64,000 nt of DNA. Origin: a virus. Below the pieces are notes generated by a model. It had not been told where the DNA came from and did not search any database. It saw only the letters and a program-made list of their open reading frames with translations. The stretch is taken from IMG/VR virus record IMGVR_UViG_3300027801_002517, positions 1-64,000 of that record. One strand, given 5' to 3'. This document shows, one piece after another, positions 8,374-37,720 of the stretch; the first letter of the stretch is position 1; each line of letters opens with the position of its first letter. The position numbers and the translations under genes were made by a program.

Positions 8374-11300
8374 ATGGCTGAAAAATTTTCATTAGTAGCA
8401 CAGATACAACTACAAGCTCCTACAAATACCCGTCAAGTTGTCGATAGAATACGTCGAGACCTTTCGGGTGTTTCTGTGCAAATACACGCAAAGGGTGCCG
8501 CAAAAACTGCGAATGAAGTTGGTAAGGTTAGTAAACAACTAAAAAATGCTAGTAAGTCTGCTACCACTTTTGCTACTAATCTAAAAATAGCTACACAACG
8601 AGCCGCTGGTTTAGCACTTGCTACGCGAGCCGTTAGTGCATTGACTACTCGAATTAAGTCTGCTGTAGATGAATCTATTGCTTTTCAGAGAGAGTTAGTT
8701 AAGGTATCTCAGGTTACTGGTAAAACCCTTAATCAACTCAAAGGGTTGGCCAAAGAGGTTACTAATCTTTCTACGAGCTTGGGTGTGTCTTCTAGTGCAT
8801 TAATTGGCGTTTCGCGACAATTATCACAGGCTGGTTTTCAGGCTGCTGATTTACAGATTGCACTATCTTCATTAGCTAAAACTGCTTTAGCACCAACATT
8901 CGATGATATTACTCGAACCGCTGAAGGTGCTATTGCGATCTTTAATCAGTTTGGCAAAGGTGCTGCTGCTCTTGAAGGTCAGTTGGGTGCCATCAATGCT
9001 GTCGCTGGTCAGTTTGCTGTTGAGTCTGGTGACTTGATTGGTGTTGTTCAGCGTGTGGGCGGTGTCTTTAAATCTGCTGGTGGTAATCTAAATGAACTAC
9101 TTGCTTTATTCACGTCTGTTAGAGCAACGACTCGTGAGTCGTCCGAGTCTATCGCTACTGGTTTAAGAACAATCTTCACTCGTATTCAGCGTCCAAGAAC
9201 AATAGCATTCTTGAAAAGTCTTGGGGTTGAATTGACTGATGCTCAAGGAAGGTTTATTGGACCTATAAAGGCGGTAGAGGCATTAAACAAAGCATTTGCG
9301 GATCTACCTCAAGGTGATTTACGTTTCATTCGTATTGCTGAAGAGCTTGGTGGATTCCGACAAATTGGTAAAGTGATTCCATTGATCCAGCAGTTTGCTG
9401 TGGCACAGGAGGCATTAAAAACTGCCCAGGGTGGTCAAGATTCTTTAGCTAAAGATGCCGCAACGGCACAGCAATCTTTAGCGGTACAAATTGAAAAAGT
9501 AAGACAAGAATATCTTGCCTTGATTAGGGAGTTTACAGATAGCTCTTCGTTTAAATTAATTGTTGGTCTCGCTTTAAATTTTGCTTCGGCACTTGCGAAA
9601 GTCTTATCATCATTAAAAGATGTGCTACCCTTACTTGCTATATTTGGTGCTAGTCGTTTAGTGGCTGGTGTGGCTGGTGGAGGTTTAGGTGGATTATTTG
9701 GTGGTAGAGGTGCTGCTAAGAAAAATCAAGGTGGTCCCATAGGATTTGCCCGTGGTGGTGTTGTTCCTGGAACTGGCAATAGAGACACGGTTCCTGCCAT
9801 GTTGACTCCAGGTGAATTTGTAATTAAGAAGAGTAGTGTTGGTAAGATTGGTGCTGGTACTCTTGCTTCCATGAACGGGTATGCTGGTGGTGGTCAGATT
9901 AAAGACCAAAAGAAATTAGGGATGGCTGTTGCTGATGATATAAAAGATAAGCCAGGAGATGTATCTATTGATCTATTTACAAAAGGATCAGAAGGATCAG
10001 TATTAAGAAAAAAAACAGGATTTGGACCATTAAACAGTAAGACAATTGAGCAACTAAAAGCAATAAGTGGGAGCGGTAGTGCTAGGAAAAAAGATCTGGA
10101 AGAAGGTAAAATACCTTTAAATGATTTGAAAAAAATAGCTGGATCACATTCCTTTAAAGGTAAGAAAAAGTTTGGTACTTTAGCTGCTGGACTTGGAGAC
10201 ACAAAAAAAGATTTTGACAGCACAGTTAATAATGAATATAAGGATTTCTTAAAAAATGCATCAGCGAACTTTGCTCCATCTATCGGTATTACAAATTTTG
10301 ATAAGGAGAAGGTATCATTTGACAAAGATTTTAAAATAAACCAAGGTGAGCTTGGTACTATATTTGAAAATTTAATAGATGTATTCGATGGTAGACCACT
10401 TATAGAACAAGCTAAAGAAACTAGAAGACCTTTTGATTTTACTTCTGGTATTAAATTTGGTAAAGCTTTTTCAACATTAAAGGGTATCAATTTTATTGAT
10501 GCAAAGGTGAGTGGTGGGAAAAATATTGCAAGTGCTGAGTTTGAAAGGAAGGCTACCAATCAATTAGCCGATGACTTGATAAACAATCAAGGGTTTCTCA
10601 GTGCAATAGGTGTAAAAAATAAAGAATTAATAGCAGAGGGTAGGCAACAACCTGATAAAAAAGGTGTTACTAGCACTTCGGGCGTTAAACGTACAACTAA
10701 AGCATCTGGTGGTGGTATTTCTGGCTCTGATACTGTACCCGCTCTCCTCACTCCTGGTGAGTTTGTTATTAACAAGAAAGCCGCCAGTAGGATTGGTTCT
10801 TCTAGCCTTAATACAATGAATAAAAAGGGTGTTGTTGGATTTAACAAAGGTGGTATGGTTGGATTTAACAAGGGTGGTGGAGTGCTTGGTGGTGGAGGTG
10901 CAGGATTTGCTGCCCTCGCTTTAGCCTCTGGTGGCTTACAGACCATGTTTGGTCAAATGGGCGAAGAAGGTTCTGCATTAAATGATGGTTTTAATGCACT
11001 CACAGGAGCAGTTACTTCTGGGTTTATACAATTTCAAATAATGAACTCTATTATAGCTCAAAGTACTCAGAGAACTAAAGAAAATGCAGAAGCTAAAGCT
11101 AAAGAAAAACAAGCTAGTGATAAATTGAGCAAATCAATAGATAAAAGAAAACCTGGATTAGACAGAAAAACACATGCAACTACTCGGGTGCAACAAACAG
11201 CAGAAGCTAAAGAAATAGCAAATGCTAACTTAGTTAAAAAAGAGAGGGCTGCTCCAAGACTTAAAAGGGCCGCTCAAAGGGACACGGCAGCGTTCCACGC

Positions 11301-14202
11301 GACAACTGAGAAAAGAGAAGGATTGCGAGATACTGGTTCAATATTAGGAATTTCTAAGTTCCAAAGTGATAAGGAAGGACTCGCAGAAGCTAGAACATCT
11401 AGAGCTACTGCTAGAACAACTAAGCAGGAAAAAGATGTTGAACATGAGGCTGCAAAAGAACAAGCGGGGAGGAAAGATCTTGGTGGTGATGCGTCGATGA
11501 AAGCTAGGGAAAATCTTGAAAAAACTGAGAGAAAAGCCGCAGCAGCAACTGAGCAGTATCATAAGTCACTGGTGAAAGTAGGTAAAGCTAAATCGAATTT
11601 GAAACAAAGTACGAAAGAATTAACTACTGCACATGAAGCTCAGAAGAAAGCATATAGGAAAGCCGCTACATCCACTAATCTTTCCCGTAAGGCACAAGAA
11701 AAATTAACTGCAAGCAGAGTTAAGGCAAAAAGAGCTACAGCAAAAGCAATTGCAGCAGAAAAACAACTGGCAATGAGCAGAAAAGGAGGTGGAGGTCGAG
11801 GTGGTGGTGGTGGAATGGGTAAGGCAATGGGTTTTGCTACTAAAGCAATGCCAGCATTCGCGGCTGCTCTGGGTGTTGCAACTCAGGCGGCAGGATATTT
11901 TGCGGAACAAGCAAATAAAAGGTTACAGGGGTCAATTGAGGAAGGAGATGTGGAAGGAATCCGTGCTAATGCTCAATCAGCTCAAAATGCTGAAACTGCT
12001 GGATCAATGCTTTCTGGTGCTGGTCAAGGTGCTATGTTAGGTGCTGCTATTGGTTCAGTAGTTCCTGTAATAGGTACTGCGGTTGGTGGTTTTGTTGGTG
12101 CTTTAGCAGGTGCTGCGACTGCTTTCTTTTTTGCTGAGGATGCTGCTAAAAAAACCGCTGAAGCAATGGGGCAATTAAGTCAAAATCAACTTGCTAAAGC
12201 TACTCGTCAATTACAAGATTTTTCAGAAGGTCTTTCTGGCTCAAAGGGTATTTCAGAATTTGCTAACTCGTTTGGATCAACCTTAAAAGAGTCGGAAAAG
12301 TCATTTCTTGCGAGTGACGCTTCAACCGAAGAAAAACAGGCTAGAACTAAACAGAATAATCAATTAAGAGCACAGGCGGCAGGCGAAATAGCTCAAGAAA
12401 CTTTCGCACAAGGTGGCGATTTAAACGATGTTGCTACACATCTTCAAAAAATAACAGACTCTTCAGGAAAACTTACTGAGGCTCAAATTAAAGCAGCAGA
12501 ATCCGCCTTTAAAGTTGCGGCTGCTCAAGCTGAATTAATCAAAGTTAATCTTGATGCTGCGAGAATCGGAGGTGCTACTGCACGAGCAGGTACTGCCGTT
12601 GATAATATTTTAGCGACTTTTGAAACAGGTAGTAGTGCATTACAAGCTGCATTTAATACATTAGAAACAAGTACAACTACTTTTGGTGGAGCTGACGCTG
12701 GAAAAGCTGCTCTGGGTGCGATCAGTCAAAACATTAATGCTCAATTAGATAGTCTGGGTATTAATAGAGGGTCGGCAGGTAGACAGGCTGTTGACAGATC
12801 TGTTGCTTCTTCTGGTGCTGCTTTAGATTTTAGTGCTCAATTATCTGAACAGTTATCTGACCCAGAAATAACCAGGGGGGAAGATCCTAAAGCAGCAATT
12901 GAAGGTATTGTAACAAAGATTACCAGTAGTATAAATGATCCAAAAGTAACCGCGATTGTTCAAGGTTCTCTTAAGCAGGTTATTGAGGGGGCGACAGATA
13001 ATGGTCAAATTGATGGATCTAAAGTCGTAGAAGGTTTGACTCAAGCGGCAAATAAAGCTGGAGTGCCACTGAAACTCTTGGGTGAGGCATTAATCAAGCA
13101 ACAGAAAGTAATTAATAAAATAACTAATGAGCGTCGAGCACAGGAACAAAAATTAATGGCGGCACAAAGTAAAGCCATTGATCTCCAACTTGAGGGTGCC
13201 AGAGTCATAGAACAAGCTGGTGGTCCGAAATTAAACATGCAAGATAGATTGGGGGCAAGAGCTACACAAGCAAGTCTACAACTAAGAGATGCTGGTGTTT
13301 CTGGTTTGGCTGGTACTGATACATCAAGTGTTAGAGCTGCCAGTAGAAATATTGCTAATCGCAGTGCCGAATTAAATCAAACACGAGGACTTCAGAATAG
13401 GGATGATGACAGGCGACCTGAGTTGAAAAAGGCGAACGATGGATTGATTCAGTTTACACGACAGAGAATTAAATTAATCCAAGAGGAAATGAGCATTGTT
13501 AAACAGAAAAATGCTCTTGAGCGAAGTGCTATTGATGCATTGTTATCAGGTGATGCTGAAGCATTCTTTAAGAACCAAAGTGCGTCGGCAGCGGCATCAG
13601 CATTAAAGAGTGGTAATACAGCTTTAATTAGATCATTAGATGCCTCTTCTGTAGGGGCTGGATTAAAGAGTCTACAAGATCAAGGTACATCGTCTACTGA
13701 ATTATTTAGTGCTGCCAGAACTGCTGGTCTGTCACAACAACAAGCAAAAGTCTTCTCTGGAACTACAGAGGAAGAAACTTCTTTAAGAAGAGAATTAGCT
13801 GACAATGGTCGTACATTAGGTGATTTAGGTAATACTGGTGCAGAATTAGAAGCTCAAGGTATTCAGCCTATATTAGATAAATTCGCTGAAGTGCAAGATG
13901 CATTCCAAAAACAATTAATTGACGGTCTTAAAGATAACTCCGCAGATATAGCAGCCAGCCAACGAGAACTACAACAGTCGAACACAGACTTGAAAGCTTC
14001 ACTTGATGAGTTAAATAAAACTGTAGCAGGCAAAAATGAGAAAGTTGAGGTAACTGTTAATGGTAATAGTGCTGGTGGTGTAGGCGGTAAACCTTCTCAG
14101 GAACAAATTATTGCTGGAATAAAATATGCCCTTGGTGTTGGAGGTCCATTAGAACTAAAACATAATCAAGCTGGTAATCATACATTCGGAGCAAACGCAT
14201 AA
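8374..14202 (+). CDS. Tail tape measure protein (TP901-like N-terminal core) with internal cargo domain
   Basis: AIFNQF...INAVAGQFAVESGDL...ATTRESSESIATGLRTIFTRI core; Ala/Gly/Lys-rich helical body; hydrophobic and Gly-zipper segments; DTVPAxLTPGEFV motifs. Confidence 0.92.
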   Translation: MAEKFSLVAQIQLQAPTNTRQVVDRIRRDLSGVSVQIHAKGAAKTANEVGKVSKQLKNASKSATTFATNLKIATQRAAGLALATRAVSALTTRIKSAVDESIAFQRELVKVSQVTGKTLNQLKGLAKEVTNLSTSLGVSSSALIGVSRQLSQAGFQAADLQIALSSLAKTALAPTFDDITRTAEGAIAIFNQFGKGAAALEGQLGAINAVAGQFAVESGDLIGVVQRVGGVFKSAGGNLNELLALFTSVRATTRESSESIATGLRTIFTRIQRPRTIAFLKSLGVELTDAQGRFIGPIKAVEALNKAFADLPQGDLRFIRIAEELGGFRQIGKVIPLIQQFAVAQEALKTAQGGQDSLAKDAATAQQSLAVQIEKVRQEYLALIREFTDSSSFKLIVGLALNFASALAKVLSSLKDVLPLLAIFGASRLVAGVAGGGLGGLFGGRGAAKKNQGGPIGFARGGVVPGTGNRDTVPAMLTPGEFVIKKSSVGKIGAGTLASMNGYAGGGQIKDQKKLGMAVADDIKDKPGDVSIDLFTKGSEGSVLRKKTGFGPLNSKTIEQLKAISGSGSARKKDLEEGKIPLNDLKKIAGSHSFKGKKKFGTLAAGLGDTKKDFDSTVNNEYKDFLKNASANFAPSIGITNFDKEKVSFDKDFKINQGELGTIFENLIDVFDGRPLIEQAKETRRPFDFTSGIKFGKAFSTLKGINFIDAKVSGGKNIASAEFERKATNQLADDLINNQGFLSAIGVKNKELIAEGRQQPDKKGVTSTSGVKRTTKASGGGISGSDTVPALLTPGEFVINKKAASRIGSSSLNTMNKKGVVGFNKGGMVGFNKGGGVLGGGGAGFAALALASGGLQTMFGQMGEEGSALNDGFNALTGAVTSGFIQFQIMNSIIAQSTQRTKENAEAKAKEKQASDKLSKSIDKRKPGLDRKTHATTRVQQTAEAKEIANANLVKKERAAPRLKRAAQRDTAAFHATTEKREGLRDTGSILGISKFQSDKEGLAEARTSRATARTTKQEKDVEHEAAKEQAGRKDLGGDASMKARENLEKTERKAAAATEQYHKSLVKVGKAKSNLKQSTKELTTAHEAQKKAYRKAATSTNLSRKAQEKLTASRVKAKRATAKAIAAEKQLAMSRKGGGGRGGGGGMGKAMGFATKAMPAFAAALGVATQAAGYFAEQANKRLQGSIEEGDVEGIRANAQSAQNAETAGSMLSGAGQGAMLGAAIGSVVPVIGTAVGGFVGALAGAATAFFFAEDAAKKTAEAMGQLSQNQLAKATRQLQDFSEGLSGSKGISEFANSFGSTLKESEKSFLASDASTEEKQARTKQNNQLRAQAAGEIAQETFAQGGDLNDVATHLQKITDSSGKLTEAQIKAAESAFKVAAAQAELIKVNLDAARIGGATARAGTAVDNILATFETGSSALQAAFNTLETSTTTFGGADAGKAALGAISQNINAQLDSLGINRGSAGRQAVDRSVASSGAALDFSAQLSEQLSDPEITRGEDPKAAIEGIVTKITSSINDPKVTAIVQGSLKQVIEGATDNGQIDGSKVVEGLTQAANKAGVPLKLLGEALIKQQKVINKITNERRAQEQKLMAAQSKAIDLQLEGARVIEQAGGPKLNMQDRLGARATQASLQLRDAGVSGLAGTDTSSVRAASRNIANRSAELNQTRGLQNRDDDRRPELKKANDGLIQFTRQRIKLIQEEMSIVKQKNALERSAIDALLSGDAEAFFKNQSASAAASALKSGNTALIRSLDASSVGAGLKSLQDQGTSSTELFSAARTAGLSQQQAKVFSGTTEEETSLRRELADNGRTLGDLGNTGAELEAQGIQPILDKFAEVQDAFQKQLIDGLKDNSADIAASQRELQQSNTDLKASLDELNKTVAGKNEKVEVTVNGNSAGGVGGKPSQEQIIAGIKYALGVGGPLELKHNQAGNHTFGANA
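9742..10878 (+). repeat. Two copies of the TMP module GG...DTVPA(M/L)LTPGEFVI.K.....IG...L..MN (9742-9894, 10699-10878) flanking an ~268-aa insert
   Basis: GFARGGVVPGTGNRDTVPAMLTPGEFVIKKSSVGKIGAGTLASMNGYAGGG versus KASGGGISGSDTVPALLTPGEFVINKKAASRIGSSSLNTMNKKGVVGFNKGG. Confidence 0.9.
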
Positions 14203-14206: not shown

Positions 14207-14569
14207 ATGAATTACACACATAATCTTAGCTCTTGTTTTTGCACGACGGCAGCATCTGGATATCCCACTGGTAGTGGCTCATTCCTCAAGGCTCAGTTGT
14301 CGGGTACATTTGGTGTATCTTCCAGTGGTACACTTGGCAGTGGAGTTTTGCATACCAGTATATACAAGTGCGAGTCACTTACATCCACTACTTCTCTATT
14401 ATTTGATATTGAAAACCTTTCTACGCCAGAACAACCAAATTCCACTTATCGTATTCTTATAAATGTGAATGATTTAGATGATGCACCTGTTGTTGGCGAT
14501 GAATTTATAGTAATTAATGTTGGCGGTATATCTTATGTTTATAATGTTTCAGCAGTGTCAATAGTTTAG
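14207..14569 (+). CDS. Small SG-rich virion protein
   Basis: Directly after the TMP; 5 SG dipeptides in the first 46 aa. Confidence 0.7.
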   Translation: MNYTHNLSSCFCTTAASGYPTGSGSFLKAQLSGTFGVSSSGTLGSGVLHTSIYKCESLTSTTSLLFDIENLSTPEQPNSTYRILINVNDLDDAPVVGDEFIVINVGGISYVYNVSAVSIV

Positions 14570-14580: not shown

Positions 14581-17500
14581 ATGGCTTCATTCAATTTAGA
14601 GTTAAACTCTGATATTACCCCTGGATTTGGTAGCTATACTCAAGCTACACAGAATGCTGATGGAACACCAAACCTACGTCATTATCCAGAAGATGTTTGT
14701 GTTAATATTCCTGGTTCTTGTGGTGGAACTTATTTAGTTGGGGGTGATCAGAGTGCTGATCTTAAGATTGCTAAATATGGGTTTGAAAATATACCTCAAA
14801 CCGTTGGCGAATCTATCAAACGAGTAAAGGTTTGGTTTGCTAATCCATACACTGCCCAGATGGAGACACCTTTTGAGCCTAAAATCGCCGCAATTCAATC
14901 TGCTAAATTAACTATTAATGGTTCTCCTGTAGCTACTAGCGATGACCCAATAGTATATCCTTTACAGGGTGAGGGAGTTGGTGATAGAGTTACATGGTGG
15001 CATTATATTGAGTTTACTGGTTTAGATATAGATATAAGTTCTGCTGATACTATTTCTAACAGCATTGAAATGACTGTTGGTGATCATGCTGCTTTCAACG
15101 ATAACTGGGAGGTTTCTAATCTCTATCTTGAAGTAAATTCCGAGACTCCTAAGCCTTATACATCAATCAGAATTAATAATGTAACATCTGATATTGTTAG
15201 TACAGACCCCGCTCAGTCCTGCCTCACCAATTTTTCAAAGAATGAGGGTCAGACTTTTGAGGTAGAGTTGTATCATGATGGTACTGTTAATATTGGTACT
15301 ACTATTGATTTTACAATTGCGGCCTCTCCAAATGATGCGATCTGTTCAAACGGAGGATTTACACTTTCTGATATTGCCTCTGTAACTGTTGATGGTGTTT
15401 CTGCTACTTCAACATCTATAGAAGATTCTCAAAAAGCAAAAAAAATTGTAATTACTCTTGCTACCGATGCTCTTACTGAAGACGCGGAACTTTTCAGGTT
15501 GACATTTGCCACAACTGATAGCCTTGGTAATACTACTACTCTTGATGATCCAGGTAATTTCTCAGCTTGGAATCCAAGTCATCTCGCTCAAACTTGCGAT
15601 ATGCATATTACTGATGTTGTTCCCCTTAATGTTGTTTCGGTTAATCCAACTTACAGAACAGTCCTACCAGCATATATACCTCTTACTTTGCAAGCTAATG
15701 AAACTAATTCAGCAACATTTACATTTAAAAGAACAGGTAGTACAACTGATACATTGAATGTAAGTTATCGGCTGTTTGGAACTGCTCAAGCGGGTGTTGA
15801 TTATACAGGTTCTCAGGTTGGCACAGTCACCTTCGCACCAGGTATAACTGTTGTTCCCCTTTCGCTTCCGACTATAGCAGATAGTTTAGTTGATCCGGTT
15901 GAAATAGTACGGTTGCGAATTGATCCCACTGCTAACTATGATATTGCTGCTGGTAAACAATTTGCTGAAGTTACGATTGCATCCGATGATATTATAAGTA
16001 GTGAGATTAAAAGAGCAGGCTCGAATATTCATACATCTGTGCGAGGTGTGCCAGGCTCGACGGCTTTTGATTATAATCTCGGGGCATATTCAGTATTGAA
16101 AAAGGACGGCTCAGTCGTTAGTTGGGGGCAAGGTGCTTATGGTGCAGGCCAGTTGTATTTCAACGGTACTGGCCATACCGGCCTTGCCTTACATAATCGC
16201 AATGACATCGTCCAGATCTTCAGCAATCCTTATGCCTTTGCTGCAATAAAAGAGGACGGTACGGTTCTTACTTGGGGGGATTACAGGTTTGGTGGTGTTC
16301 AAAGAGTTATAACAGGTGACACAACCCCCGACGCTCATCATACCAGTACATCCGTACACTTCATCAGAGATGTGGACCGGATCTTCTCCACCCAAAAAGC
16401 ATTTGCATCGTTATCTTACGCTGGGACACAATTTGGTTTTGTTAAAACTTGGGGTCACGCAAGTCACGGCGGTGACAGCAACAGCGTGGCCACACAGATC
16501 GCCAATGGTGTCAGCCAAGTCTTCTCGACACGGTCTGCTTTTGCGGCGTTGAAAACAGACGGCTCGGTCGTCACCTGGGGGGATTCAGGCTACGGCGGTG
16601 ACAGTAGTAGTGTGGACTTGAGCGAAGGTGTCACCCAAATCTTTTCAAATTACAATGCCTTTGCAGCATTGAAAACGACTACGGGCCTTAGCCCCACTGC
16701 CGGTTCGGTCGTCACATGGGGGGGGAGTGGCGGTGACAGCAGCAGCGTGGCCACGCAGATCAGTAGTGGTGTTGTTCGAATTTTTTCCACAAGGTATGCC
16801 TTTGCTGCGTTGAAAGAAGACGGCTCCGTTGTCACTTGGGGTAATGCAGGTTATGGTGGAGACAGTAGTAGTGTGGATTGGAGCGGTGGTGTCACTCAGA
16901 TCTTCTCCACCGAAGGTGCCTTTGCAGCGTTGAAAACGGATGGCTCGGTCGTCACCTGGGGGGGGTCATGGAGTGGCGGCAACAGCAGCAGCAGCGTGGC
17001 CACACAGATCGCCAATGGTGTCATCCAGATCTTCTCGACACCAAGTGCCTTTGCGGCATTAAAAGAGGATGGCTCGGTTGTCACATGGGGAGAGGCAGGT
17101 AGCGGCGGTGCCAGTGGCAGCGTGGCAACACAACTAACCTCCGTAATCCATATCTTCTCAAATAGTCATGCATTTGCTGCACTCAAGGCGGATGGCTCGG
17201 TCGTCACTTGGGGAAATCCTGATAAGGGCGGTGATCAAGTAGTTGTTGGGGCCATAGGGGCAATCCCTGTTAGCGTGGCTACACAACTGAGCAGTGGTGT
17301 TGTCCGGATCTTCTCAACACCGGATTCATTTGCGGCATTGAAAGAAGACGGCTCAGTCGTTACGTGGGGAGGTGGTGGTGGCGGTAACAGCGGAAATTTA
17401 AATAGTTCTTACGCTGATTTACTAAATGTACGGACCTCAGTTAATTCAGATACATATGATATTTTAGATCCTGTTAATCCTGATGATAATCCTCCTACAT

Positions 17501-20500
17501 TAAATGCTATTGATCATATTATCCTTAATGAGGATGCTGATACACAAACCGTTAATTTAACAGGTATTAGTGATGGTGATTCGGGAACTCAACCGTTGCA
17601 GATTACGGTTACTAGCAGTAATCCCTCATTAATTCCGACTCCAACTGTAGCATATACATCACCTAATGTGTTCGGAAGTTTAAGTTTCACTCCTACTTTA
17701 GGATTAAGTGGTACATCTACAATTACAGTAACGGTTACAGATGGTGGGTTAGATAATGATCTAAGTGCAACAACTGACAACAAAACATTTAGTCGTACAT
17801 TTACAATAACGGTTAATTCGGTTAATGATCTACCGACATTAGATCCACTTGTAGACATGACTGTTGATAAGAATGCTTCCGCACAAACAGTTTCTCTTAC
17901 GGGTATCACTGATGGTGATGATGATACTCAAGCTTTAACTGTAACAGCCGTAAGTAGTGCTACAGGCACAATTCCAAATCCAACCGTAACATACACTTCA
18001 AACAATACAACTGGTAGTTTGGTTTTTACCCCTGTAACTAATCAAACTGGCACAGCTACTATTACTGTGACAGTACAAGATGATGGTGCTGGTACAATAG
18101 CTCGTTCATTCGATGTGACAGTAGTTGATTTTAACACTCCTCCAACATTAAATGCTATTTCTAATGTCACGATTGAGGAAAATGATCCTGAGCAAACTGT
18201 TAATTTAGCGGGAATTACTGCTGGGGGTAGTGATTCTCAAGCTTTACAGGTAACAGCTACCAGTAGTGATACAAGTATAATCCCAAATCCGGTTATTACT
18301 TATACATCCGCACAAACAACGGGTACTCTAAAATTTACACCAGTTACAAATCAGCATGGTACAGTTACAATCACTGTAACAGTAGAAGATGCGGGATTAG
18401 ATAATAATCTAAGCATCACTTCAGATAATCTCACCTTTAGTCAAACATTTACAGTCACTGTAAATCAAATTATAGTGCCATCATATTATGTGGTTGACAT
18501 TGAATTAGTATCACATGATGGTGTTGACGCAATAGATTTAGAGTCGTGTCAGACGGATGGTAATTGTTTCGCTCAAGTCTGCCATATAGATGATTATTTA
18601 AACCCTGTAGCAGAATACTTAACAGCATTTGGTCATATACCAAGTGATCCTTTGAATATTGAGTCTAGTGGTAGTATTAATTCTACATTGAGTGCTGAGA
18701 TAAGTGGCGTTGTAAATTTATTATCTACTACTGAAATTTCTAACTCTGGCTTATCTGTAGATTATAGTGTATCCCAGTCCGTTGATAGTTTAGGGGAACT
18801 ACAAGCTAAATATACCGATAAACTTTCTGGTGATTTTGGTGATTATAACTGTGCCCAAAAATTATATCCTATTGCCGATGTTTCTCATAGTTATTTTGTC
18901 ACCTCTAGTGGTACACATTCTGATTTATATAAATCAATTGATGAGGGTGTATTCTCTGGAGATGGCATAAAAGAAAATGGTGTTTCTACACTAATAGCAG
19001 ATTCTACTACATTTATTCATCCATCATCTATTCATACAGATGGTGAGTTTAGTTATAAATTTAAAGTTACTACTCCCATCGTAAGACCAGATTATACGAG
19101 ATTAAGAATTCGGGCAGCAGCACCATTATTTACCCACGAAGCCAAAATTCCTCCGAAGTATACTTTTACTGATATTAAATTCGAAGACCCAGATGGTGAC
19201 TTAGTTGTTGAATACAATGACATTGTGGTTTCTGGTGATTCTACATACATTGGGATGAGTGGTGACGCAAACTTTACAACATATTCCAGTTCTCCTAAAG
19301 TCAATTGGGATGACACTTATCCTGAGTTAAATGGCACTGAATATACATTATCATTTAATTTATTGAGTGAAGATGTCGGAGATGCTTTCAGTGTTGGTTT
19401 TGATACTGGCTTTGAAGAAGACTATGATATACCAGATCCACTACATAGTGGTGATGATTATCTTGCTTTACATGGTTCTCCATTATCTACTATGAGTCAG
19501 GGATTTTTAAATCCGACAGATACTATTAGAATATCTGCTATTGAGATTTGTAACAGTGGTAAATACGGTCCACGTATTGAAGATTCTATTAATCTTTTCT
19601 CGGAAGTACGTCCTACTGGTAATAAAGTACAGAGAACATTAATACCAACATTAATGCCATTAGTTGATTTTGATAGTACTATATATCCTACAGTAAGTAG
19701 TGTCTGGTATGCAAATGACGATGCTAATTTCTCAAATTATAATACTACAGGAACAAAGAGATTAATTCATAATATTAATAATAGTCTTGACTCAGACTTT
19801 ATTATTATGAACCATACATCTGGTGTAGCAGACTCTGGTAAATTAACATTAAAGATGAGTCATAATGCAGATCCTAATAATCTTAAAACCAGAACTCGTG
19901 GTGCATTTGATTTAGGCTTTGATGGAACTATTGGTGGTACATGTATTAGAAATGGTGCCTTTAATAGATTAAATATTGAAGATGATGATATCAATGATGG
20001 CTTCTTTGTCGCTGATCGTGATTGTATAACTCTACGAGTTAGGGCTAAAAAGCAATCTGATTCAAGGGATTATGTGCTTGATGTTGTAGGTTATAGTGAC
20101 GATTGTATTCTGAACATGACCAGTGCCGTTGGTGGATTCTTACAGGCTTCATCTGGTAATCCTATTGGAAATTATCCTGTCTCATCTGGATTTAGTGGAT
20201 CAGATGATCTTGCTCTTAGTGCCAAATCTCTATCTCAACGGGAAAACTATTTCCAAGTAAGTGGTGATAATAGTCACTTTGTTAATCTTGGGGAAGATCA
20301 TTATTCTCTTGTTGATGGACCGCTTGTCAATAGTACGGAATTTGCTTGGTATGAAATTCCACTAAAGATTTACGATGATAATGTTACTCTCGGTCGTTCT
20401 CGTGATTATCGAATGAGTTCATTACTTGAGAATCTATACTTAGATATCTATCCATTACCAAGTGGTGCAAGTATTTCTAAAGTAGAAATGTTGGTTACAT

Positions 20501-23500
20501 ATGCACCTCAAAATGCTTTACAAATAGTGACTGAGGGTGGTGAAGTTAGAAAGGTTACATCTGAGGACAGACCAGAACCTAAGATCTTCCCAAGCTCGAT
20601 GCAGCCTAATGATAGTTATTTAAATGCTGGATCTGGTTATGGTTCATTATCTTATATTAGTGGTATTCCTCAAGCTTATTCTACTAAGAACACCTCATTA
20701 AAAACCAATTATTCCAGAAGATGGCGGGGTATGGATGGTTTAACTGAAGGTCCGTATGACCAACAGTCATTCGGGTTTGGTTTCTATAATCCACAATTAG
20801 ATTATCCATTCTTATCTGGGTTTTATGGTTTTGACACAGAGACTGGTACTAGTGTTATACCTGATGTTGGTAATTTAACAGGAGTTATTTCAAGTACATA
20901 TTCTACATATAGAATTAAAAACTTAGGTTGGCGATTTAAAAATTCCACTTTGTTTACTAATCAATTGCCAGGACATACTGGTGCTTATGAAACTATTGAC
21001 TGGAGTTCATTGTCAAATGGTTCCAACAATTTCCATAATCATCCATTGTCTGGTCAAATTGCGGATGCATTTAACACTGCCATTAGAATATCTGGACATA
21101 ATTCCAGTATTAACTTTGGTGATATAAATATTGTTCCCGATTCTGGCTTTAGTATGTATGCCAGATTCTCTCCAGATGCTAATGTCTCTGGAGTAGGATA
21201 CGATCTATTCGAGAGTGGTTGCTTGTTCTCTAAATGGGATACAGGCAATGATCTTGAATTCGCTTTAGGTTATGCTAGTGGGTTCTTGCGTGGTTATGCT
21301 AGAGACAATGCTGGTGCTGTACATACAGTACAAGACCCCGCTATATGTTCTGGCTACCAGTATCCATTAAGTGTAATTCTCACTTACAATGATGATGGTC
21401 GTAGTGGTTTAAAACTGTATACCGATAATGAGTTTGAGCCTAATTGGCAAACTATGAGAGCAAGTTCTGTAGCACCATTTAAGTTGCACACTGCAGATAG
21501 TAATTTTGTTGTTGGAAATTCAACAGGTTCTGGTGTTGGTTTCAATATGTTCCTTACCGAATTGGGAATTTCTAATTCTGGTAATGTTGTATACTCTAAT
21601 CCAGATCCTACATATAAGCAAGTTACTGCTCAAAAATTCCTTGAAAATAATAGGTCGTTCTGGTGGGATAATACTGATACATCATCGAATGACGGCTATA
21701 CATTATGGCAGAATATTGATGAAGATACCCGAACTGATTGGGATTTGGGAGAATTCAAGTATCAACCATTTAGTCTTGCTTTTAAGCAGTACACAAAAAG
21801 AACTAATAGAGATCTTGTTAGCTTCAAAGTCTTCGGTGACGGTCAACCTTATTATGCTAAAACAGATCAAACTTTACCGTCTACAATTGATAGCGGTGTA
21901 GCATATCATAGTCAGATTGAAAATGACTTTTTAAGATTCCATTTAAGTGATACTCCTAATAATTTCTATTCTGTTTATCCACGAATCAGTAAAGATATAC
22001 CAAGGGGTTATAATTTTATAGATGATGCTTTAGTCGTAGAGACTGTTTTGGAGCACACTACTAATCACGATATTATATGGAGTGGCGGTCAAGTTGGGCC
22101 GAAATTAATTGTTAGTTTGTATACCAAAAAACAAGAACCATATTATGAAACTGCCAATCCTAACTGGGGATTAATTAATCGTAGTACTCATTATCTGGAA
22201 CCATCTGGTGGTATACATAGACTTGATAGTACATTTACATATGATGATGTGTGTGATAAATCTGAGGAATGGGCCACTTTCCCAATTGAAGCCACACTAA
22301 AAGAATTTAAAGAGAAATATTTTTCACAAGATGTGGATGATATGTTCTTACAGTATGATGTTGTATATCCGTCTGGTGGTTCATTTGAATCCAAAATTGA
22401 TATTCACACTGCACATGTCAGAATGGAAAATGCGTATGTGAATCCTACTGCTGATTCTGGAATACTTAATATTGCTACGAGTGGTGGTAATGTTGTAGAC
22501 GATAGAGACCTAATGTTGTCTCTCTATAATGGTCCATCACCAGCTAGTGGTGAATTCACACTATACACTATTGGTCCTATCCAGGTTGAAAATTCAGGGT
22601 TGCCACTCTATACTAGTGGGACATTGGTTAGCAGAGAAGAATTAAATTTATTCACCCATAATTTTGTTACCATTCAAGAATCTGGTCTGACTTTATCTAC
22701 TTCCGGTAAAATGCCGATTGAGCAATCTGGTGTTGTAAATCTACATACTTTAGGTAAGGGAGTCTTTACATCTGAAGTTAGCCGAACTGTAAATTCTACA
22801 ACTATAACTATCGGTACAGATTCTTCTACGATTGTATTCAATAATGAAAATAATACAATTCAATCAGAAGGGTTAAATTTAAAGGATGATTATAATTATC
22901 GGGTTGGTGGAACAATTACAATTGCTAATTCTGCTAATCCAGAAAACAATGGTACATATACCATTACAGAGATTAGTAATACATCTGGTACAAATGACAC
23001 ATTAACAATTGTCAATACAGATGGTAGTAATCCAGATTTAGTTACTGGATCAGATGACACAGAGGGTTTAACGGTTTCTGGCAATTATATTGATAGTATT
23101 GTTGGAATGGCTTTAACGGCAGTAAACACTGAAACTGCTGGTTTGATTAGCGGTATATTCAACTTAAATGCATTTGTTAGTCCAACTGCTGACACAGATG
23201 CTATACAAGCTAATATGCCAGTATTTGTGCTGAATGATTTTCAGACAGATCCAACTGATAATAGTGGTATTCTTAACTTAAGAACATTAGCTACATCGGC
23301 ATTAGTATCAATATATCCTACAGCATCAATGAACCTGTATTTAGAAACAGGTTATGCTTCTACTAATGCTGATATGAACCTTACATTGTATGGTGATAAT
23401 TATAGCACAACCGCATCTAGTGGTTCTATGAATCTATCAACTGCAAATTATGCTGGTCCATCAAATCCACTATCAACATATAATTATGCCAGTGTTGGTT

Positions 23501-26500
23501 CAGACTACTCGTTATGGTTCAATAATAATATTGGTACTGGTATTGATCTTTCTGATAATGATTATGCAACTCTACCTGCCGATGATGAACTTAGAGGTGT
23601 AGATTTAATTGGTTATGGATCTTGTACGGGAAATAGTCCAGATAAGGTAACCGATGCGGCTGTTGTAACAGATGATGTTGTTTGGCGTGAAGAGCAATGT
23701 GTCGAAGGCGGTATTATGAGAGCCGACAAGACATATACAAATCTTGAAGCTGGTTATAGTGGTAATTATTATGGTATAAGAAAATATACGGAATTAGTTC
23801 CTAGTTATTCTTACTTTGCTACATTAGAAATGAAAACTGGTAATACAGAAGCTATTAAAGTTCCGAGAGATTTAGAAGAATGGGAATATGGAATAAATTC
23901 TGATATCAATTATTCTGGTGTTAAATTGATTGGTGACGATCCTGCTTTAAGTGGAGATACATCTATTGAATATCCTTTACCAGACTCCGGAAGAAACCCA
24001 GAGGATAATTATGGTAAATCAGTTGCGGTCCACAAAGACTTAATGGTTGTTGGCTCTCCGTTTATAGATATTCCAGATGAATCTGGTTATAGGATGACCA
24101 ATGCCGGAACTGCTTTTGTATATAGAAGAAATACAGATGTGCCTGGACAAAAGGCGGCTTGGAATTTAGACACTCATTTAATACTTCCATCTGGATTTAA
24201 GAGAGATTTTGTTAGTAGAGAAGTTTCAAATGCTATAAGTGTGGGTGATTGGAGTATTGGTTCCAAAAAATGGAATGTTGGTCAAGAAGGTAGAGAGTTA
24301 GGTCATTCGGTAGATATTGCATCTTCTGGAGATACTGAAACTATTGTAATTGGTGCTCCCGGTGCTGGATGGGGTAGAACATTCGATACTATTACAGAAT
24401 CTGGTATTCCAGTATGTATGATGGTATTTACTGACCAATTTAATTATAAGGATGAAAATCTTGGAGCGGTTGGTAATGCTGCAGACAAGAATAAAATCTT
24501 GTATCGTTATTTCTCTGCTCCTTGGCGAGAAGATTTTCAACCTCGTGTAGATATTAAACTGTTAGTATTCCAATTAGCATATGATAGAGATGAAAAACCC
24601 GTAGTTAACTCTAATATTGAATGGTTTAAACACCAATATATGGAACGAGAAGATGACCAAGATTTACTTGAGCAAAATAGCAAAGAGGTTATTAGAAATG
24701 GAATAGTCAGTGGAATTCAAGATGCATTCTTGGAGATGTTCCCTCATAACACTACAAGTCCGCATAGTGGAATTCCTCCAATTGTTGGTATATTTAAAGA
24801 CAGTACTTTATCAACTAAATACACCCTTTCATTTAATGAATCTGTTAATAGATTTGTCAGTTATTATAATGATTATTCTTTTGTTAGTGGTGTAAATGAT
24901 CCATCAGATGCATCTCCACAGGCTGGTCATGTTAATACGATAAAAGGTGACTCAGCAAGCTTTGTATTATCAACAGTAGAATTACTTAATGAGACATTGG
25001 ATACTGGTCGATTAAATTCTGAAAATATCTTAAAATTTATAACCAGTGGTGTTGGTCAAGAGTGGGCTAATAGTAATGCCTATCAATTCCAAATACCTCC
25101 TGCATCTGGTGGTAGAGTATATATCTTTGAAAAAGAAAATAATGAGTTTAACTTAGTTCAAGAAATTAAATCCAAAACGGAAAAAGATTTTACATCAACA
25201 TTTTCTAACAATGGTATTGATGATTATGCTATTAATTTAGGTTCTATACCAAGTACAAGATTTGGGCATTCTGTTTCTATTAGCGATGAAAATGAAATTA
25301 TTACAGTTGGTAGTCCTTATGATGCAAATGCTATAGAAGTATTTGAAAGAAACCCATCTGAGCATACAAGGATGCTTAGTAACATTCGACCGTGGCTTGT
25401 TCACCAAGATAAAACTGAAGAAGTTACTAAATACGATTTACTATTAACTGCTTCTGGTTCAACACAAACTGCCCAACAAATCTACTATGATTTATCTGCA
25501 ACTGATAAGTTTTTACTTAGAATAGATGAGTCATATTGGATTAATCGTCCAATTGAGTTATATAAGAATATTTACACTTATGGTTATGGTAATATTCCTT
25601 ATCGTGGAACTTGGGGCTTTATTCCTGATGAGTTTGCCGGAACATCTAGGCTTGGTTATAGCACAGCAGTTTCATCCAGTGGTAAAACTATTGCTGTAGG
25701 TGCTCCAACAGATTCATTTAATGAATTTGACGACAATAATATTTGGTATGGTGGACAAAGCAGTTATAATACTTGGGCTTCTTATACAAATGCTGGTGCT
25801 GTTCGAGTATTTGGATCAAGAAACTATTATCCTCATAATCGTGTAGTAGAGTTTTATAAGTTTGGTAACTTGGATAAAACAATGCATCCAAGTGTAGTGG
25901 ATCAGGGTTTCTACGATCAATGGGATTTATTCTATGGGTCTGAGCGTCCGTTTACAAGAACTGCATTTAGTGATATTGAAATCCCACAAGATGCTGGGTT
26001 AGCATTTATTATTACTCCAGAAGTAGATGCTGCAAGTGATGAAATTATTCAGAATATTAAAGATTGGTTAGCACTTGGTGATAGAACATTGGTACTGGTT
26101 GGTAATGATCCAGTTTACGAGGAAAATGGATTATATAGAGGCTCTAATGTTATTGTCAATAAAATTCTTGAAAAACTTGGTTCAAGAATGAGTATTCATC
26201 CGGCAAGAAATGCACATGAATCTTTAGCTGGTGCTAGAAATGAGAGCCAAGTATTTGATAAGAAATATAATGTTGTAGCATCTAAAGTGCCTTCATATGC
26301 TACATCGACTAGGATCTCTAACGCAAGTATATTTGCAAGTGGCGTTGGTGATATTAGGATTAATGTCTCTAGCGATTTGGGTCCAAATTATCTTGCACAT
26401 GAACCTTGTGATGAGTTCAATGCGGGATGTGGGTTACCACAAATGCATAACGGTGATTTACGTGCTGAATGGACTGAAAAGTGTGAGAAAACTATTCCAG

Positions 26501-29500
26501 GTGTTGGTGCATTTGATGTGTATTACCAAAATAGCTGGCCGTTTCAGTTTGGAAATCCAAATCCATCAGATGAATGTGATAATCCTCCAGAGGGATCAAT
26601 CAATCGACCTAATCAAGATATACGTCCTATTCTTGTTGCTGCTGAAGATGTTCCAGAAAGCGGTTATATCATTCCCGCAACCGATCCGGGATCAGGTTTA
26701 ATAGAAGAACAACTCTTTAGAACATCAACAACCAATGAAACATATTTTTATCGCGAATTTGCTGAACAACAAATTGATGAAGTAGCATTTTCTGTATATG
26801 AAGACGCTAATTCTAATGTTACTGGTGTGAATGTTAATCACTTCGGTATTGGCACTTTTGATGATCCAGACTCATTTACGACTTCTGATGGAAGTGTAAG
26901 GGATGGTCTGTTATATGCTACGGGGGTTAATACAGCTTCATCAGATTTTAATGAAGTTGTAATATTAGCTGAAGAAACAATAGCTGCAACAAAAGAACAA
27001 TATTTTGATGATGAAAATAACCCTAAAGGTAGTGTTTATTTGATCGCTAATATGACTCTTGAGTCAGCAGTGGCTCTTGGTGTGGGCGGTGTATCGACTC
27101 CTAATAGTGATCAAAATATCGCATTTTATAATAATTTAGTTATGAAAGATTGTAGCAATGCTGGACAAGTTTATCAGTTAGGTGGCTGGACTGGACATTC
27201 ATCCTTTACTTCGGCATATTCTAAATCAAAAATCAATCAAGTTTGGGGTGACTTTGAGCAATCCTATACTGAAAATGTAATTCTTGGTAATGGCGATGAT
27301 GAAATACAGCAAATTCCAAACGCTGTAAATGTATTATGGATTGCCAATCCTCAAGGCTTGCCAACTCCAGCAGATCTTAATGTTATAAAAAACTGGTTAC
27401 ATGCTGATCCTGAAAATCTGGGAGACACAGAAAATCCTGATTTTGTGGAGAAGAAAATTGTTATTACTTATGGCACAAATGCAGAAATAGCACAAAATGT
27501 AAGAAGTATTTGTGAAAGTTTAAATTTAACTACAAAACCTCGACGTTCTGACAATCCTCATTACTTTGAAGATGATCTGGAGGAGACTGGGTTTTTCTCA
27601 AGAAAGTCTCATGGTAGAGATGGTGATATATATCAATATCAGAATGTCGGTTTAGATATATCTACAGTTGGTTGTGATGAAGGTTATGTTTTTGCTGGAT
27701 TGGGATCTAGTGATGGTTCAACATCTACTGAAGTAGATGATTTATATGTACCTGTATCGTATCTTGTTTCAGATGCTGCAAATTCGGTTACAGGATTATT
27801 CTTTTCTATAGAACTGGGTTCCAATACTACTAAACTGTTATATTTTGATGGTCCTGAAGATAATATAACGGAAACATTATATACGGCAGCTCCAGATAGT
27901 TGGTATGTTCCTGGTGATGGTGCATCTGCTACATTTAATGTTGAGAGAGGTTCAGGATATAGATTATTCATTAATAGAGTTTCTGAAAATCCGAATGAAA
28001 TAATTGGTTTACATTATAGTACAGAGAATGTGGCATTCCCAGGAGAAACTTGGTCATTAGAGCAAGACGAAGATGATCCAACCATTTACACAGATCAGGT
28101 ATCTATAAGTCCAAATAATTACTATCGTACTTTATCAGGAACTACAACCAATAATGTTGAAACTATACAATTAGATTTTTATGTTCCATCAGGTGATGTA
28201 CTTAGTACAACTACTGTTAAACTTAATTTCCAAACTCCACAAATTTTTGCTGGTCCAAATAGTGTCCCAGGTGGAAGACTTGGTGGTAGTTTAATAGCAC
28301 CAGGTACAGAGTTTCATGACTATCTTCTTGATAGGAATACCTTCCCAGCTACACCAAGGCTATTATCTATGTCTGGTTGTTTATTGCCAGTTATTAATAC
28401 TAGTCAGACAATTTCTTCGACAGGTGAAGTGCCTGATGGTCAGAGGTATTATTGGTCTGAGCCAACTGCGGGCACACCCGAACGGGAAGTTATAATTCCA
28501 GCTACATTTAGAACCATTATGAATGACAATACTCAGTATTGTGATCCAAATAATAATCCTACAGGAGCTGAAAATACAGATCCAGACCAAGAAATATTTA
28601 ATATATTAGATGGAGTATCAGATAAGGAGTGTATTGGTGGTTCATTAATTCAAGATGGTCCGGTAGTTTGTGCTGTAGAACAAGAGACATTTACTGGTTT
28701 TGTTAATGGGTTAAACAGATCGACTATTGTAGTAATATCTGATTCTACAATCGTGCAGGGTCAAAATGCTTATTACAGAAATGATACTAATGCTGGTAAT
28801 CAGGCATTTGTGAGAAGTTTATATCCAGTAAGTCCAGGAGATCCTGATGATGATGGTAACTTCTTTACAAAAGGTAGAAATTATGAGCAGGTTCAGAAAT
28901 TATTATCACCAGAACGTGGTAGTCCTGGTAAATATCGTGCATTGAGTGGTGGTATTGCTAATACAACACTTAAGTTTGGTTCATCTTATTCTACACCAAG
29001 TGTTAATGTCTTTTCTGATACTGAAAATAGTTTACATCCAAATGATGTAGCTAGATTGCCAACTCCAACTGGTAGTAAGAGATTGAAAGATGAGACCTCA
29101 CTCTTTGAAACTGGAGTTATCAAGAATTATGGTGCATATCCGAGATACAGTGGTAGTATTGATGGTGTTGAATATATGGATGCTGGTAGAGGAGGGGGTG
29201 TTCCAGATCTACTGAAGAAAACGGGTAAAGATTATCTCGATTTAGATGTATATAGTACTGGTTATCCAGGTGATTTGTTTGGATATGATGTCAGTATTCA
29301 TGAAGACAAATTAGTAGTTGGTTCTCCGTTTAATGCATTTGAATCTGGGTATCCTGCTATAAGCTGGCCTTCTGTACTTAATCATTACAATAGCGGAATT
29401 GATCCGACTAAGATATCAGGTAATGGTGGAGTTGGTTCGGTATTCTACTTTGAGAACACTGGTAAAGGTGTTAATGCAACTGGTTCATTCTTATCTTGGG

Positions 29501-35800: not shown

Positions 35801-37720
35801 AGAAATTTATCTTTTACAGAATCTTCTGCTCTTAGTGAATCAGAATTACCTTTGTCAACTCAATTTCTTTTAGCCCCAAAAGATTTAAGCACTATCGTTG
35901 ATTACAATGGTAGAATGAAATGTTATGTTAGATATGACAATAGTCAATTTTTGGATATGAGTACAGTATCTAAAGATAAGATCGTACAGCAGTCACAAGG
36001 GGATAGAGGTTTTATCCCTGATATTATGGAGGAATTAGAAAATACAAATCCTGCTCATGTTAATAAAATTAAAATGAATAGAGAGAAGAATTTGAATGCA
36101 ATAGATACTCCAAAAACTGTTACATTTGTTTCGTGTGATATTGATGCTCAATTGTATATGTGTCCAAAGCCCTCTGGTTCACAAGTTACTGTTTATGGCA
36201 GGAATGTAGAATATGTAGCAAATGAAAGACCATTACAATTTAAAGAGGAATCTTCTGGATGTTATAAACCAGTCATTCAAAATCAATATAGAATATATTC
36301 GCCAAGTACCAATGGTGGTGCTGATGGTCAGGTTGTAGAAAATACAGATTTCCAAAGAACATATAATGAATATTTAGATGCTCATTTAATCGATACTGAA
36401 AAAGAAAATCTTGATCCAGATCATGTATATGCCTTAATTACTATACCTGGTAGAATTAAGCCTATCATAGATTCTAGATACAACGATGCAGAACTTTATG
36501 CTGTCAATGCACCCGTGATTAAACATAATTTGACTCAAGATGTGGTGCGAGGCCCGAAGGGTTTTGAAAAACCAGCACCTGCTGTAAATAGGGATGAATT
36601 TACTTTTGACTGTCCATTAGCATTAAGTGATTTTAACAAATTGGATGAAGCGGGAATAACTAATGCAGAAAAAGCAAAAACACTTTTAAATTGGCAAAAA
36701 CAGGAGTTTAAACAGTTCAATGCCGGTATAAGAGCACAACGAGAAGTTATGAATTCTGCATCTCAAGGGAATGAAGATTTTAATGTAAGCAAGTCACAGC
36801 CTTCACCAGTATATCCAGATTTAGTTGCTATGCCATTACTTTCTAACGAAAGGTGCTATGGACCTTGGATGTCTGCGAGTATTATAGATTCCAATGCTTC
36901 AGTAAGATACTCAAATATAGGTGGTAAAGTAGAATTTGTCAAGGATGAAAATCTTGCTCCTTGGAATTTTGCTGGTTATCAATTAATGAACGAGGCTGGG
37001 TCGTTACAGGCTCAATTTTCTAATAGCCTATTATTGTTTGGTGAAAAGGGTAGTTTCTCTATGCCTGAAGCACCAACTGGATTATCTATTGCTGCAGCAT
37101 TAAAAGCTGGTGGTCCTCTTGTCACTTCTATTAATGTTTCTGTTGGTGATTCAAGTATTCGTACCAGTGTAAATATGGATCTATATACTTCACGGTTTGG
37201 TAAATTACAGAAACAAAAAGAAGAATTAATCGGCAAAATTTCGAGAGAAAGACAAAAAATTATTGATCAGAATAATAGTATGGTTCGTCAAGGAATTGGT
37301 AAATCATTTTCGAATGTTAACTTAGCGGCTCCACTATTACAAACAGGGGAAATTTTAGAGAGGGCTGCGGAAGATATGGATACTGTATTTAATCAATTAA
37401 TGTCGAATCAAACGGTGTCTTTTAAGTCTCGTGTTGATGTTACGTCAGCTAGGGGTATAAATGGTAGTCCAACAACAGTACTGAATCGTGGGCAAAGTGC
37501 TGCGACTGAGGGTGATTCAGATGGAATAAGAACAGAGGCTAATTTATCTTCAGCGGCAAGACATTCACGAAAAGATAAAAGGTTTAATAAACGCCCTGGT
37601 GATGACACAGAAATATTCTCCGCAGATGGGAGGAGTAGTTCTCAATTTATTGATGGTGAAGGAATGGATAATATGGACCTAAATGATGTTAGTGATTTAT
37701 TCGGTGAACAAGTTGTATAG
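32861..37720 (+). CDS. Large tail-tip / baseplate-hub-like protein
   Basis: TFLGASIRSFNISAGFGDTSSQLSVDLV...FGGILQSY...LNVTDPREIL hub-like N-terminus; C-terminal coiled coil. Confidence 0.5.
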   Translation: MSDYSVIPPSAVYGNDWPDHHVLPQGKGGSISQAGWTEETQGFPQQTFLGASIRSFNISAGFGDTSSQLSVDLVNDEYNKSDGLPAGQGDDVYHSGLLDTFRPPVVGTPVYFKFGKNFATIDQSYRKTLDDTYNESTIPSVIDFPTVTTNGDITQIPGDNYFLRDTTGTGANTVHTWVDKSSLLDATNNSRGKDHFVFGGILQSYTQTKGPNGNPLYSLNVTDPREILSNASVILNNYQGTTFNNKNLFNVYGFLEYDVSDELKEEIEGTDVLPNTDLESKNILTKNVDAQGIITYTGDDTYSFNSLPFSISNLPPSFPITGQGFARRGDQGIPWYRVDQALTALFGFNGALPDEYVNAGFGGTIDFRGYKYVVDFTGIPLEKIPQMYFMDFDQLTLMDLAQELADVISHDLFVSLLPVIDHPAYSWLYNLNQYNIDNGNTTDVITGVIRIDAIDRSVQPDYGSIKSYIDDLAVNGVEVENQDVGFELSNVTTDKFVVGANEVDMFYFTNHRDRNNLQLRRKNNGLPNDFELLEETQWDLETSLKQQILPFYGFLGKSAVTIPRGFGAYQQILLDTSKLNAYGVGNYYITTELELRNALSSYQDWAKFLTDYSELYIEDLSADQQFYKGYAGAALVNLQDDASMQSLLDKYSETSDRNRLALEAIKNGNYGVTVPRCLFNSDKDFMGNDGYPASPCSPPYGYPLYYKRAEKIGIFQAASADFGAPYLKIQSNYEELKKRLADKLDNGSIVVEEDDLSDVLEDIISGTMDDIDISSLSAGSLKSLYGEFEEGRKITKDYKNFYQLVGQTVRAANVLTSNKSYIAAVTDIGLDGEKNAKKVYAFLKRIAEENLGKKFLVKIPKACNLSYDSKFEFDTSEVEIEKGPFGFKPQPINFDAGYSSSTEFNIEISGLLTQIQTIDVNQGTSAMSSRELFNHYLDKDAKAEYTYGALKNNYNPVSEKWEFNYQPATNGGFFNFALHNRNLSFTESSALSESELPLSTQFLLAPKDLSTIVDYNGRMKCYVRYDNSQFLDMSTVSKDKIVQQSQGDRGFIPDIMEELENTNPAHVNKIKMNREKNLNAIDTPKTVTFVSCDIDAQLYMCPKPSGSQVTVYGRNVEYVANERPLQFKEESSGCYKPVIQNQYRIYSPSTNGGADGQVVENTDFQRTYNEYLDAHLIDTEKENLDPDHVYALITIPGRIKPIIDSRYNDAELYAVNAPVIKHNLTQDVVRGPKGFEKPAPAVNRDEFTFDCPLALSDFNKLDEAGITNAEKAKTLLNWQKQEFKQFNAGIRAQREVMNSASQGNEDFNVSKSQPSPVYPDLVAMPLLSNERCYGPWMSASIIDSNASVRYSNIGGKVEFVKDENLAPWNFAGYQLMNEAGSLQAQFSNSLLLFGEKGSFSMPEAPTGLSIAAALKAGGPLVTSINVSVGDSSIRTSVNMDLYTSRFGKLQKQKEELIGKISRERQKIIDQNNSMVRQGIGKSFSNVNLAAPLLQTGEILERAAEDMDTVFNQLMSNQTVSFKSRVDVTSARGINGSPTTVLNRGQSAATEGDSDGIRTEANLSSAARHSRKDKRFNKRPGDDTEIFSADGRSSSQFIDGEGMDNMDLNDVSDLFGEQVV

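Follow-up and report, generated by a model that had tools for sequence, protein, structure and literature searches.

A resident domain with invariant charged residues in the tape measure proteins of uncultured aquatic phages

Between two copies of a DTVPAxLTPGEFV peptide motif, the tape measure protein (TMP) studied here carries a domain of ~250 aa (the slot domain) belonging to an undescribed, TMP-exclusive family, with five conserved charged residues and a fixed place between hydrophobic segments. We are highly confident that this domain is a resident of the TMP family and is not swappable, and sequence comparison indicates that it spans a large clade of uncultured aquatic phages. The best explanation overall, which we hold with moderate confidence, is a resident TMP domain having a candidate active site and a non-canonical fold. 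A TMP with an embedded functional domain is a known kind of protein, while the slot domain itself is new.

Identification of the tape measure protein

The window, i.e. the whole stretch of DNA that was analysed, comprises positions 1 to 64,000 of an IMG/VR virus record of 157,369 bp, whose completeness is estimated by CheckV at 94%. In the ORF list and its translation, positions 8374-14202 of the plus strand encode a product of 1942 aa, which in the Pfam scan matched PhageMin_Tail (PF10145) at aa 127-313 (E 9.8e-25; 88 bits against a gathering cut-off of 33.2) and which was also matched by several PHROG tape-measure families (E 1e-21 to 4e-8). Because of these matches the ORF was assigned as a TMP, as an earlier note on this DNA, made by reading the sequence, had proposed. 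The protein is also, as expected of a TMP, very long and largely helical, with Gly-rich hydrophobic segments, and its gene is part of a same-strand late-gene run, which extends on the plus strand from 3 to 42320. Concerning the tail-module neighbours that were scanned, neither Pfam nor PHROG gave a family match, and therefore their tail roles are putative. Directly downstream of the TMP gene there are a 120-aa ORF (14207-14569) and then a single ORF of 5382 aa (14581-30729, plus strand), followed by further large ORFs of 1619 aa (32861-37720) and 1260 aa (37735-41517). Facing the tail module, a minus-strand run (42398-63896) consists of tightly packed ORFs of ~230-420 aa.

The features discussed below are the following (nucleotide coordinates in the window, strand, description):

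8374..14202, +, tape measure protein, 1942 aa (P0001); PF10145 and PHROG
8752..9312, +, PhageMin_Tail (PF10145) region, aa 127-313; inside the conserved N-terminal ~380 aa
9547..9690, +, hydrophobic segment 1, aa 392-439; hydropathy (Kyte-Doolittle, averaged over 19 aa) up to 1.8
9709..9888, +, motif module 1, aa 446-505; core DTVPAMLTPGEFV at nt 9784-9822 (aa 471-483)
9886..10653, +, slot domain, conserved and globular, aa 505-760; AlphaFold and homologue searches
10366..10368, +, E665 in helix 657-671 (G-x-x-F-E); invariant, 59/59
10435..10437, +, D688 of the P-F-D-F motif; invariant, 59/59
10498..10506, +, D709-A710-K711, predicted short beta strand; AlphaFold model and 59-sequence alignment
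10549..10551, +, K726, in the helix predicted to come after D-A-K; conserved at 95%
10675..10869, +, motif module 2, aa 768-832; core DTVPALLTPGEFV at nt 10729-10767 (aa 786-798)
10882..10938, +, Gly/Ala-rich hydrophobic segment 2, aa 837-855; hydropathy
12016..12138, +, glycine-zipper-like hydrophobic segment 3, aa 1215-1255; hydropathy, weak PF13488 and PF06897 matches

Several descriptive claims of the earlier note were confirmed at this level. The two motif copies and the three short motifs that it had pointed out between them, GTIFE (10354-10368), RPFDF (10426-10440) and FIDAK (10492-10506), lie where it had placed them, and hydrophobic segments are indeed present on both sides of the insert, at aa 392-439 and 837-855. 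It had also described the 268-aa segment as rich in Ala and Lys; the segment is rich in Lys (39 residues) and is not rich in Ala (19 residues).

Relatives and common architecture

With the N-terminal region of the TMP as query, at least 560 relatives were found in IMG/VR, and 80 loci were retrieved. From these, 70 slots could be extracted for comparison, all of them connected by iterated search, and 59 sequences entered the alignment of the slot domain. All relatives share one architecture. Conserved N-terminal ~380 aa come first and lead into a hydrophobic segment; then comes the slot domain, framed by modules 1 and 2, and after a Gly-rich hydrophobic segment there is a helical region that is long and evolves fast. 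Across 69 relatives the identity in the N-terminal part is 56-67%; past residue ~500, both the slot and the 400 aa following it are 20-30% identical between relatives. Such a sharp split of constraint inside one TMP, with conserved aa ~90-470 (window 8640-9780) and a diverged remainder, is unusual.

Searches that started from the insert itself led back to the same kind of protein. A word-index search with aa 500-785 returned 3 TMPs of 2116-3204 aa, and phmmer, run exhaustively against 1.84 billion representatives, returned 19 proteins; all these matches are long TMP-like proteins or their fragments. One 281-aa match of a profile search was considered as a stand-alone homologue and was rejected, since it is part of a TMP that is broken by a frameshift and lies on a contig of very low coverage. 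The signature of the slot domain, described below, is kept in TMPs of 47-57% N-terminal identity (L089, L090) and in the closest copy from a metagenome-assembled genome (MAG; L082).

Resident domain or swappable cargo

In the earlier note the motif repeats were taken as handles, for recombination or for processing, on either side of an injected effector that can be swapped; the cargo would then differ between phages. We consider this model very improbable, and by the comparison of slots it is largely refuted. In a polymorphic cargo system unrelated domains would occupy the same slot of otherwise similar proteins. What was found is the same homologous domain, with its signature, in about 68 of the 70 slots, close to the outcome (identical content at this position in all relatives) that the note itself had named as refuting. 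A permissive regular expression, G-x-x-[FLY]-E...[FL]-D-[FY]...[DE]-A-K, matches 64 of the 70 slots, and among those it missed, L003, L004, L009 and L077 have variants of the signature that are visible by eye. Moreover, divergence in the slot is no faster than in the next 400 aa, conservation being restricted to the N-terminal part of the protein, and a stand-alone version of the domain, which might act as a donor, was not found by single-sequence search.

Some observations do speak for exchange. The second motif, where present, usually lies 190-1000 aa past the first in the relatives, an extra module follows the domain in ~15 of the 70 slots, one TMP (P0013) has a P-loop-like stretch before the domain, and in L061 an additional slot contains a different segment of 240 aa. 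The variation in slot length has three sources: a shortened N-terminal half of the domain (L004, L010, L082), tandem duplication with the signature kept in both copies (L028/L030, L038), and one appended module, in the ~15 slots just mentioned, belonging to two main families, one with 7 members and one with 5. The duplicated copies occupy aa 1-244 and 245-487 of the slot in L028/L030, and aa 54-323 and 339-608 in L038. A recurrent module of ~200 aa after the domain starts with '...FGG(L/I)IQKF...' and has no Pfam match; accessory modules were also located in P0003 (aa 760-953), in P0007 (aa 740-944) and in the slots of L062 and L077. The stretch of P0013, at aa ~640-700, reads GPAGSGKTT, is Walker-A-like and gives weak AAA_30 and AAA_16 matches.

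The motif copies themselves show neither the DNA identity nor the border specificity that would mark border repeats. They differ at most synonymous sites, and the longest run of identical DNA is of ~8 nt; the motifs are conserved as peptides and not as recombination substrates. There is no third copy in any of the six frames of the window. In module 1 the mean column identity is 73% (alignment A6, 40 relatives), and the first motif is found near residue 470 in all 80 retrieved loci. In most relatives a third copy, ~150 aa before the C-terminus, stands alone and brackets nothing; the C-terminal DTVPAMLTPGEFV module that they carry is lacking in the TMP of the window (13700-14202). The same module is present in TMPs of Gordonia phages, and in the form GG..PG.G..D.VPA.L.PGEFV also in a virion protein of 770-950 aa of T4-like cyanophages (Kyanoviridae), for example L102 (NC_070962, S-SCSM1) and L103 (NC_015279, S-SM2). 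In those phages this protein is encoded between the baseplate hub/hub-assembly genes and the tape measure gene. Single copies in such diverse places, together with the synonymous divergence, do not fit a role as handles. Co-folding of module 1 with module 2, in a run without controls, gave a score of 0.29 against a mark of 0.32.

From their sequence distribution, the DTVPAxLTPGEFV modules are best explained as structural elements that proteins of the tail lumen and the hub have in common. The peptide would be a widespread building block and not a cassette border, which corrects the polymorphic-effector reading. In comparison with polymorphic toxins (Rhs, CDI), the TMPs are similar in having a conserved peptide motif before a more variable region and occasional extra modules. 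However, nearly all relatives have the same homologous domain in the slot, with no sign of cassette exchange, and the motif occurs also without any bracketed domain.

Conserved residues of the resident domain

The 59 aligned homologues share 14-50% identity with the copy in the window, and across this divergence the most conserved columns of the domain are E665 and D688, both at 100%. F687 and G661 are conserved at 97%, K711 and K726 at 95%, A710 at 92% and F689 at 88%, while position 709 is D in 52 sequences and E in 7. The sole conserved polar residues are E665 in the middle of a helix, D688, D/E709 and K711 on a short strand, and K726. The E, D and DxK pattern that had been noticed in the single sequence exceeds what chance would give, because these residues are the top-conserved columns in 59 diverged homologues; the pattern is thus real, and it includes a D/E exchange at the very position that varies in PD-(D/E)XK enzymes. 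Since the three motifs rank as the most conserved columns, they can be considered the functional core of the domain. The alignment indicates that the E...D...(D/E)xK pattern is under strong purifying selection, and the conserved residue set is the pattern that would be expected of an active or metal-binding site.

In compact variants of the domain (L082, L004, L010) the core takes the form F-E-E...P-L-D-Y-x5-G-(D/E)-A-K-F, for example P-L-D-Y-P-P-D-P-G-E-A-K-F, and the D and the (D/E)xK are just 7-9 residues apart. Read from sequence alone, this core may correspond to a helix and then a hairpin, as in the minimal PD-(D/E)XK core.

Predicted fold

Two AlphaFold models of the slot domain were obtained, the former from 23 sequences (pLDDT 85.7, pTM 0.79) and the latter from 59 sequences (pLDDT 92.7, pTM 0.87). 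Both predict one compact, confident domain with four strands and flanking helices and no coiled coil, in agreement with the globular appearance that the earlier note had recognised between the repeats. Structure prediction was also one of the checks suggested by that note for its nuclease reading; the compact domain was borne out, while a PD-(D/E)XK match was not obtained in either of the two confident models.

In the model, three of the four sheet strands come from the N-terminal half of the domain. E665 is located in helix 657-671 and D-A-K in strand 708-711; P-F-D-F forms a beta bridge only, no strand is predicted between the E-helix and D688, and the D-A-K strand is followed by two helices and by no further strand. 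The order of the elements is beta-beta...beta-alpha-alpha(E)-[D bridge]-beta(DAK)-alpha-alpha. As modelled, this strand order differs from the canonical PD-(D/E)XK order.

Family and structure searches

Neither Pfam nor PHROG scans of the insert identified a family, and when all 59 members were scanned singly against Pfam, at E up to 10, only scattered single matches appeared and no nuclease clan. A profile search against PDB sequences returned rows at chance level, ORC4 and JAK2 at E 0.1-1, and ESM Atlas feature searches with the domain and with its core gave scores of 0.84 or less and no nuclease family. The Foldseek and VIA lists contained no restriction-endonuclease-like chain; it should be noted that these lists were full of single-helix matches, so that the sheet region was barely probed. 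No structural or profile similarity to lysozyme-like, peptidase or lipase families was seen. In literature searches, neither the DTVPAxLTPGEFV motif nor a TMP with a nuclease domain was found described.

Known nucleases were also considered within the clade. A canonical PDDEXK_1 exonuclease is encoded elsewhere in 24 of 30 records of the clade, and hhalign of the slot domain against it, the one known family compared, gave a probability of 0.1-0.3%. The VRR_NUC family is absent from 38 related phage records. The PDDEXK_1 gene of this phage (Cas4/RecB-like) lies outside the window (G000:C1:72478-73356, minus strand); this phage and 23 of 29 relatives have one such protein each (L104-L127), of ~345 aa, with the motifs G-T-I-D-L-V, I-D-W-K and D-P-Q-L-L-L-Y.

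Candidate function of the slot domain

We consider it likely that the slot domain contains a catalytic or metal/ligand-binding site, even if the conserved charges could serve an oligomer interface or a conformational switch instead. The domain may be a divalent-metal-dependent hydrolase, most plausibly a phosphodiesterase, in which a site resembling that of PD-(D/E)XK enzymes would sit on a fold of non-canonical strand order. It would leave the tail together with the TMP and act at the envelope or in the cytoplasm during DNA entry. Nuclease or phosphodiesterase chemistry is the single most suggestive option, although as an assignment it is tentative and we give it a probability clearly below even.

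According to Steczkiewicz et al. 2012 (PMC3424549), the active site of PD-(D/E)XK enzymes has an acidic residue in the first helix, to which the second strand adds an Asp and the third strand (D/E)xK, and the slot domain has this signature at the level of its sequence. One could hypothesise, with considerable doubt, that it is a genuine PD-(D/E)XK nuclease, highly diverged or topologically rewired, which would be injected with the TMP to cleave nucleic acid of the host, or else to process or hold the end of the phage DNA. The E in a helix, the hydrophobic-D, the hydrophobic-(D/E)-x-K and the K of the next helix correspond to the published description of the superfamily active site (PMC3424549), and insertions, circular permutation and domain swapping are documented within the fold (PMC3424549). 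The 7-9 residue spacing in the compact variants is hairpin-like, and the slot domain is basic, with a pI of 9.4. In particular with respect to the minimal Hjc/YraN-like members of the superfamily, the residue pattern is alike, including the D/E interchange at the third position. However, neither Pfam nor the PDB profile search nor hhalign against the PDDEXK_1 of the clade links the domain to a known nuclease, the structural matches listed include no restriction-endonuclease-like chain, and the secondary-structure order of a confident model is non-canonical.

The extended form of this hypothesis, i.e. that the domain is the first nuclease-type enzyme in a TMP, that its metal site is PD-(D/E)XK-like but sits on a rewired, unseen fold, that it is ejected before the genome and that it is conserved across at least 560 large (160-175 kb) uncultured aquatic siphophages, seems to us rather unlikely. 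If it were true, the targets of a TMP nuclease at the entry site could be nucleic acid of the host or a component of its defence; processing or holding the leading DNA end would be another possible role.

The domain might, on the other hand, be non-catalytic and serve in structure or assembly, for example by plugging the tail lumen, docking to a chaperone or the tail tube, acting as an oligomerisation node or forming the vestibule of a membrane channel, its charges forming salt bridges or binding an ion that controls unfolding at ejection. It is confined to TMPs, always in the same place, its predicted fold resembles no enzyme in the structure lists, long helices dominate the model as in other tail-lumen proteins, and tandem duplication is tolerated. 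We nevertheless doubt this explanation: besides Gly and Phe, only five charged residues are kept at 88-100% across ~15-25% identity, and the helix-strand-strand-helix context with an exchange limited to D/E would be unusual for a purely structural domain.

Finally, the domain could be a new enzyme that degrades the envelope (peptidoglycan, some other glycan or lipid), in analogy with the muralytic domains of other TMPs; this was weighed and appears improbable. The Pfam scan recognised no lysozyme, transglycosylase or peptidase domain in the 1942-aa TMP. A transglycosylase annotation is given to distant TMPs such as SPbeta YomI, the Kyanoviridae proteins with the motif are annotated as lysozyme and adjoin TMPs annotated as carboxypeptidase/transglycosylase, and conserved carboxylates would suit a glycosidase-type mechanism. 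Yet no resemblance of the domain to the envelope-enzyme families named in the previous section was seen, either in structure or in profile, and (D/E)xK plus a second Lys is atypical of glycosidases.

Comparison with other tape measure proteins

Of all phage proteins, TMPs come first into contact with the envelope and cytoplasm of the host, and they are known as host-sensing targets and as carriers of wall-degrading domains. Embedded enzymatic domains occur in the TMP of mycobacteriophage TM4, with its Rpf-like motif, and in T5 pb2, with its muralytic region. With these and with SPbeta YomI the TMP described here shares a globular, apparently functional domain inside a long TMP and adjoining membrane-active hydrophobic segments, and as in those proteins the domain would exit the tail with the TMP. 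With SPbeta YomI, annotated as a transglycosylase, the N-terminal region of the TMP aligns distantly (~23% identity). Unlike the muralytic TMPs, the slot domain falls in no known muralytic family and its conserved residues look like those of a phosphodiesterase site; and, in contrast to the other enzyme-bearing TMPs, it is universal in one large uncultured clade. Since it combines a confidently predicted fold, restriction to TMPs, an invariant charged set and the absence of known relatives, the resident slot domain can be proposed as a candidate new entry-stage enzyme, possibly with a new fold.

Origin of the related sequences

The clade is known solely from metagenomes. In the collection of cultured phages no relatives were found except SPbeta-like YomI TMPs, and the matches in the genome collection are all on MAG contigs whose taxonomy is mutually inconsistent. 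The labels of these mis-binned contigs include SAR202, Flavobacteriales, Verrucomicrobiales and Saccharibacteria. The genomes of clade members that are complete or nearly so (G008, G013, G015 and G021, from which L014, L030, L038 and L054 derive) measure 160-175 kb, and one of them carries direct terminal repeats.
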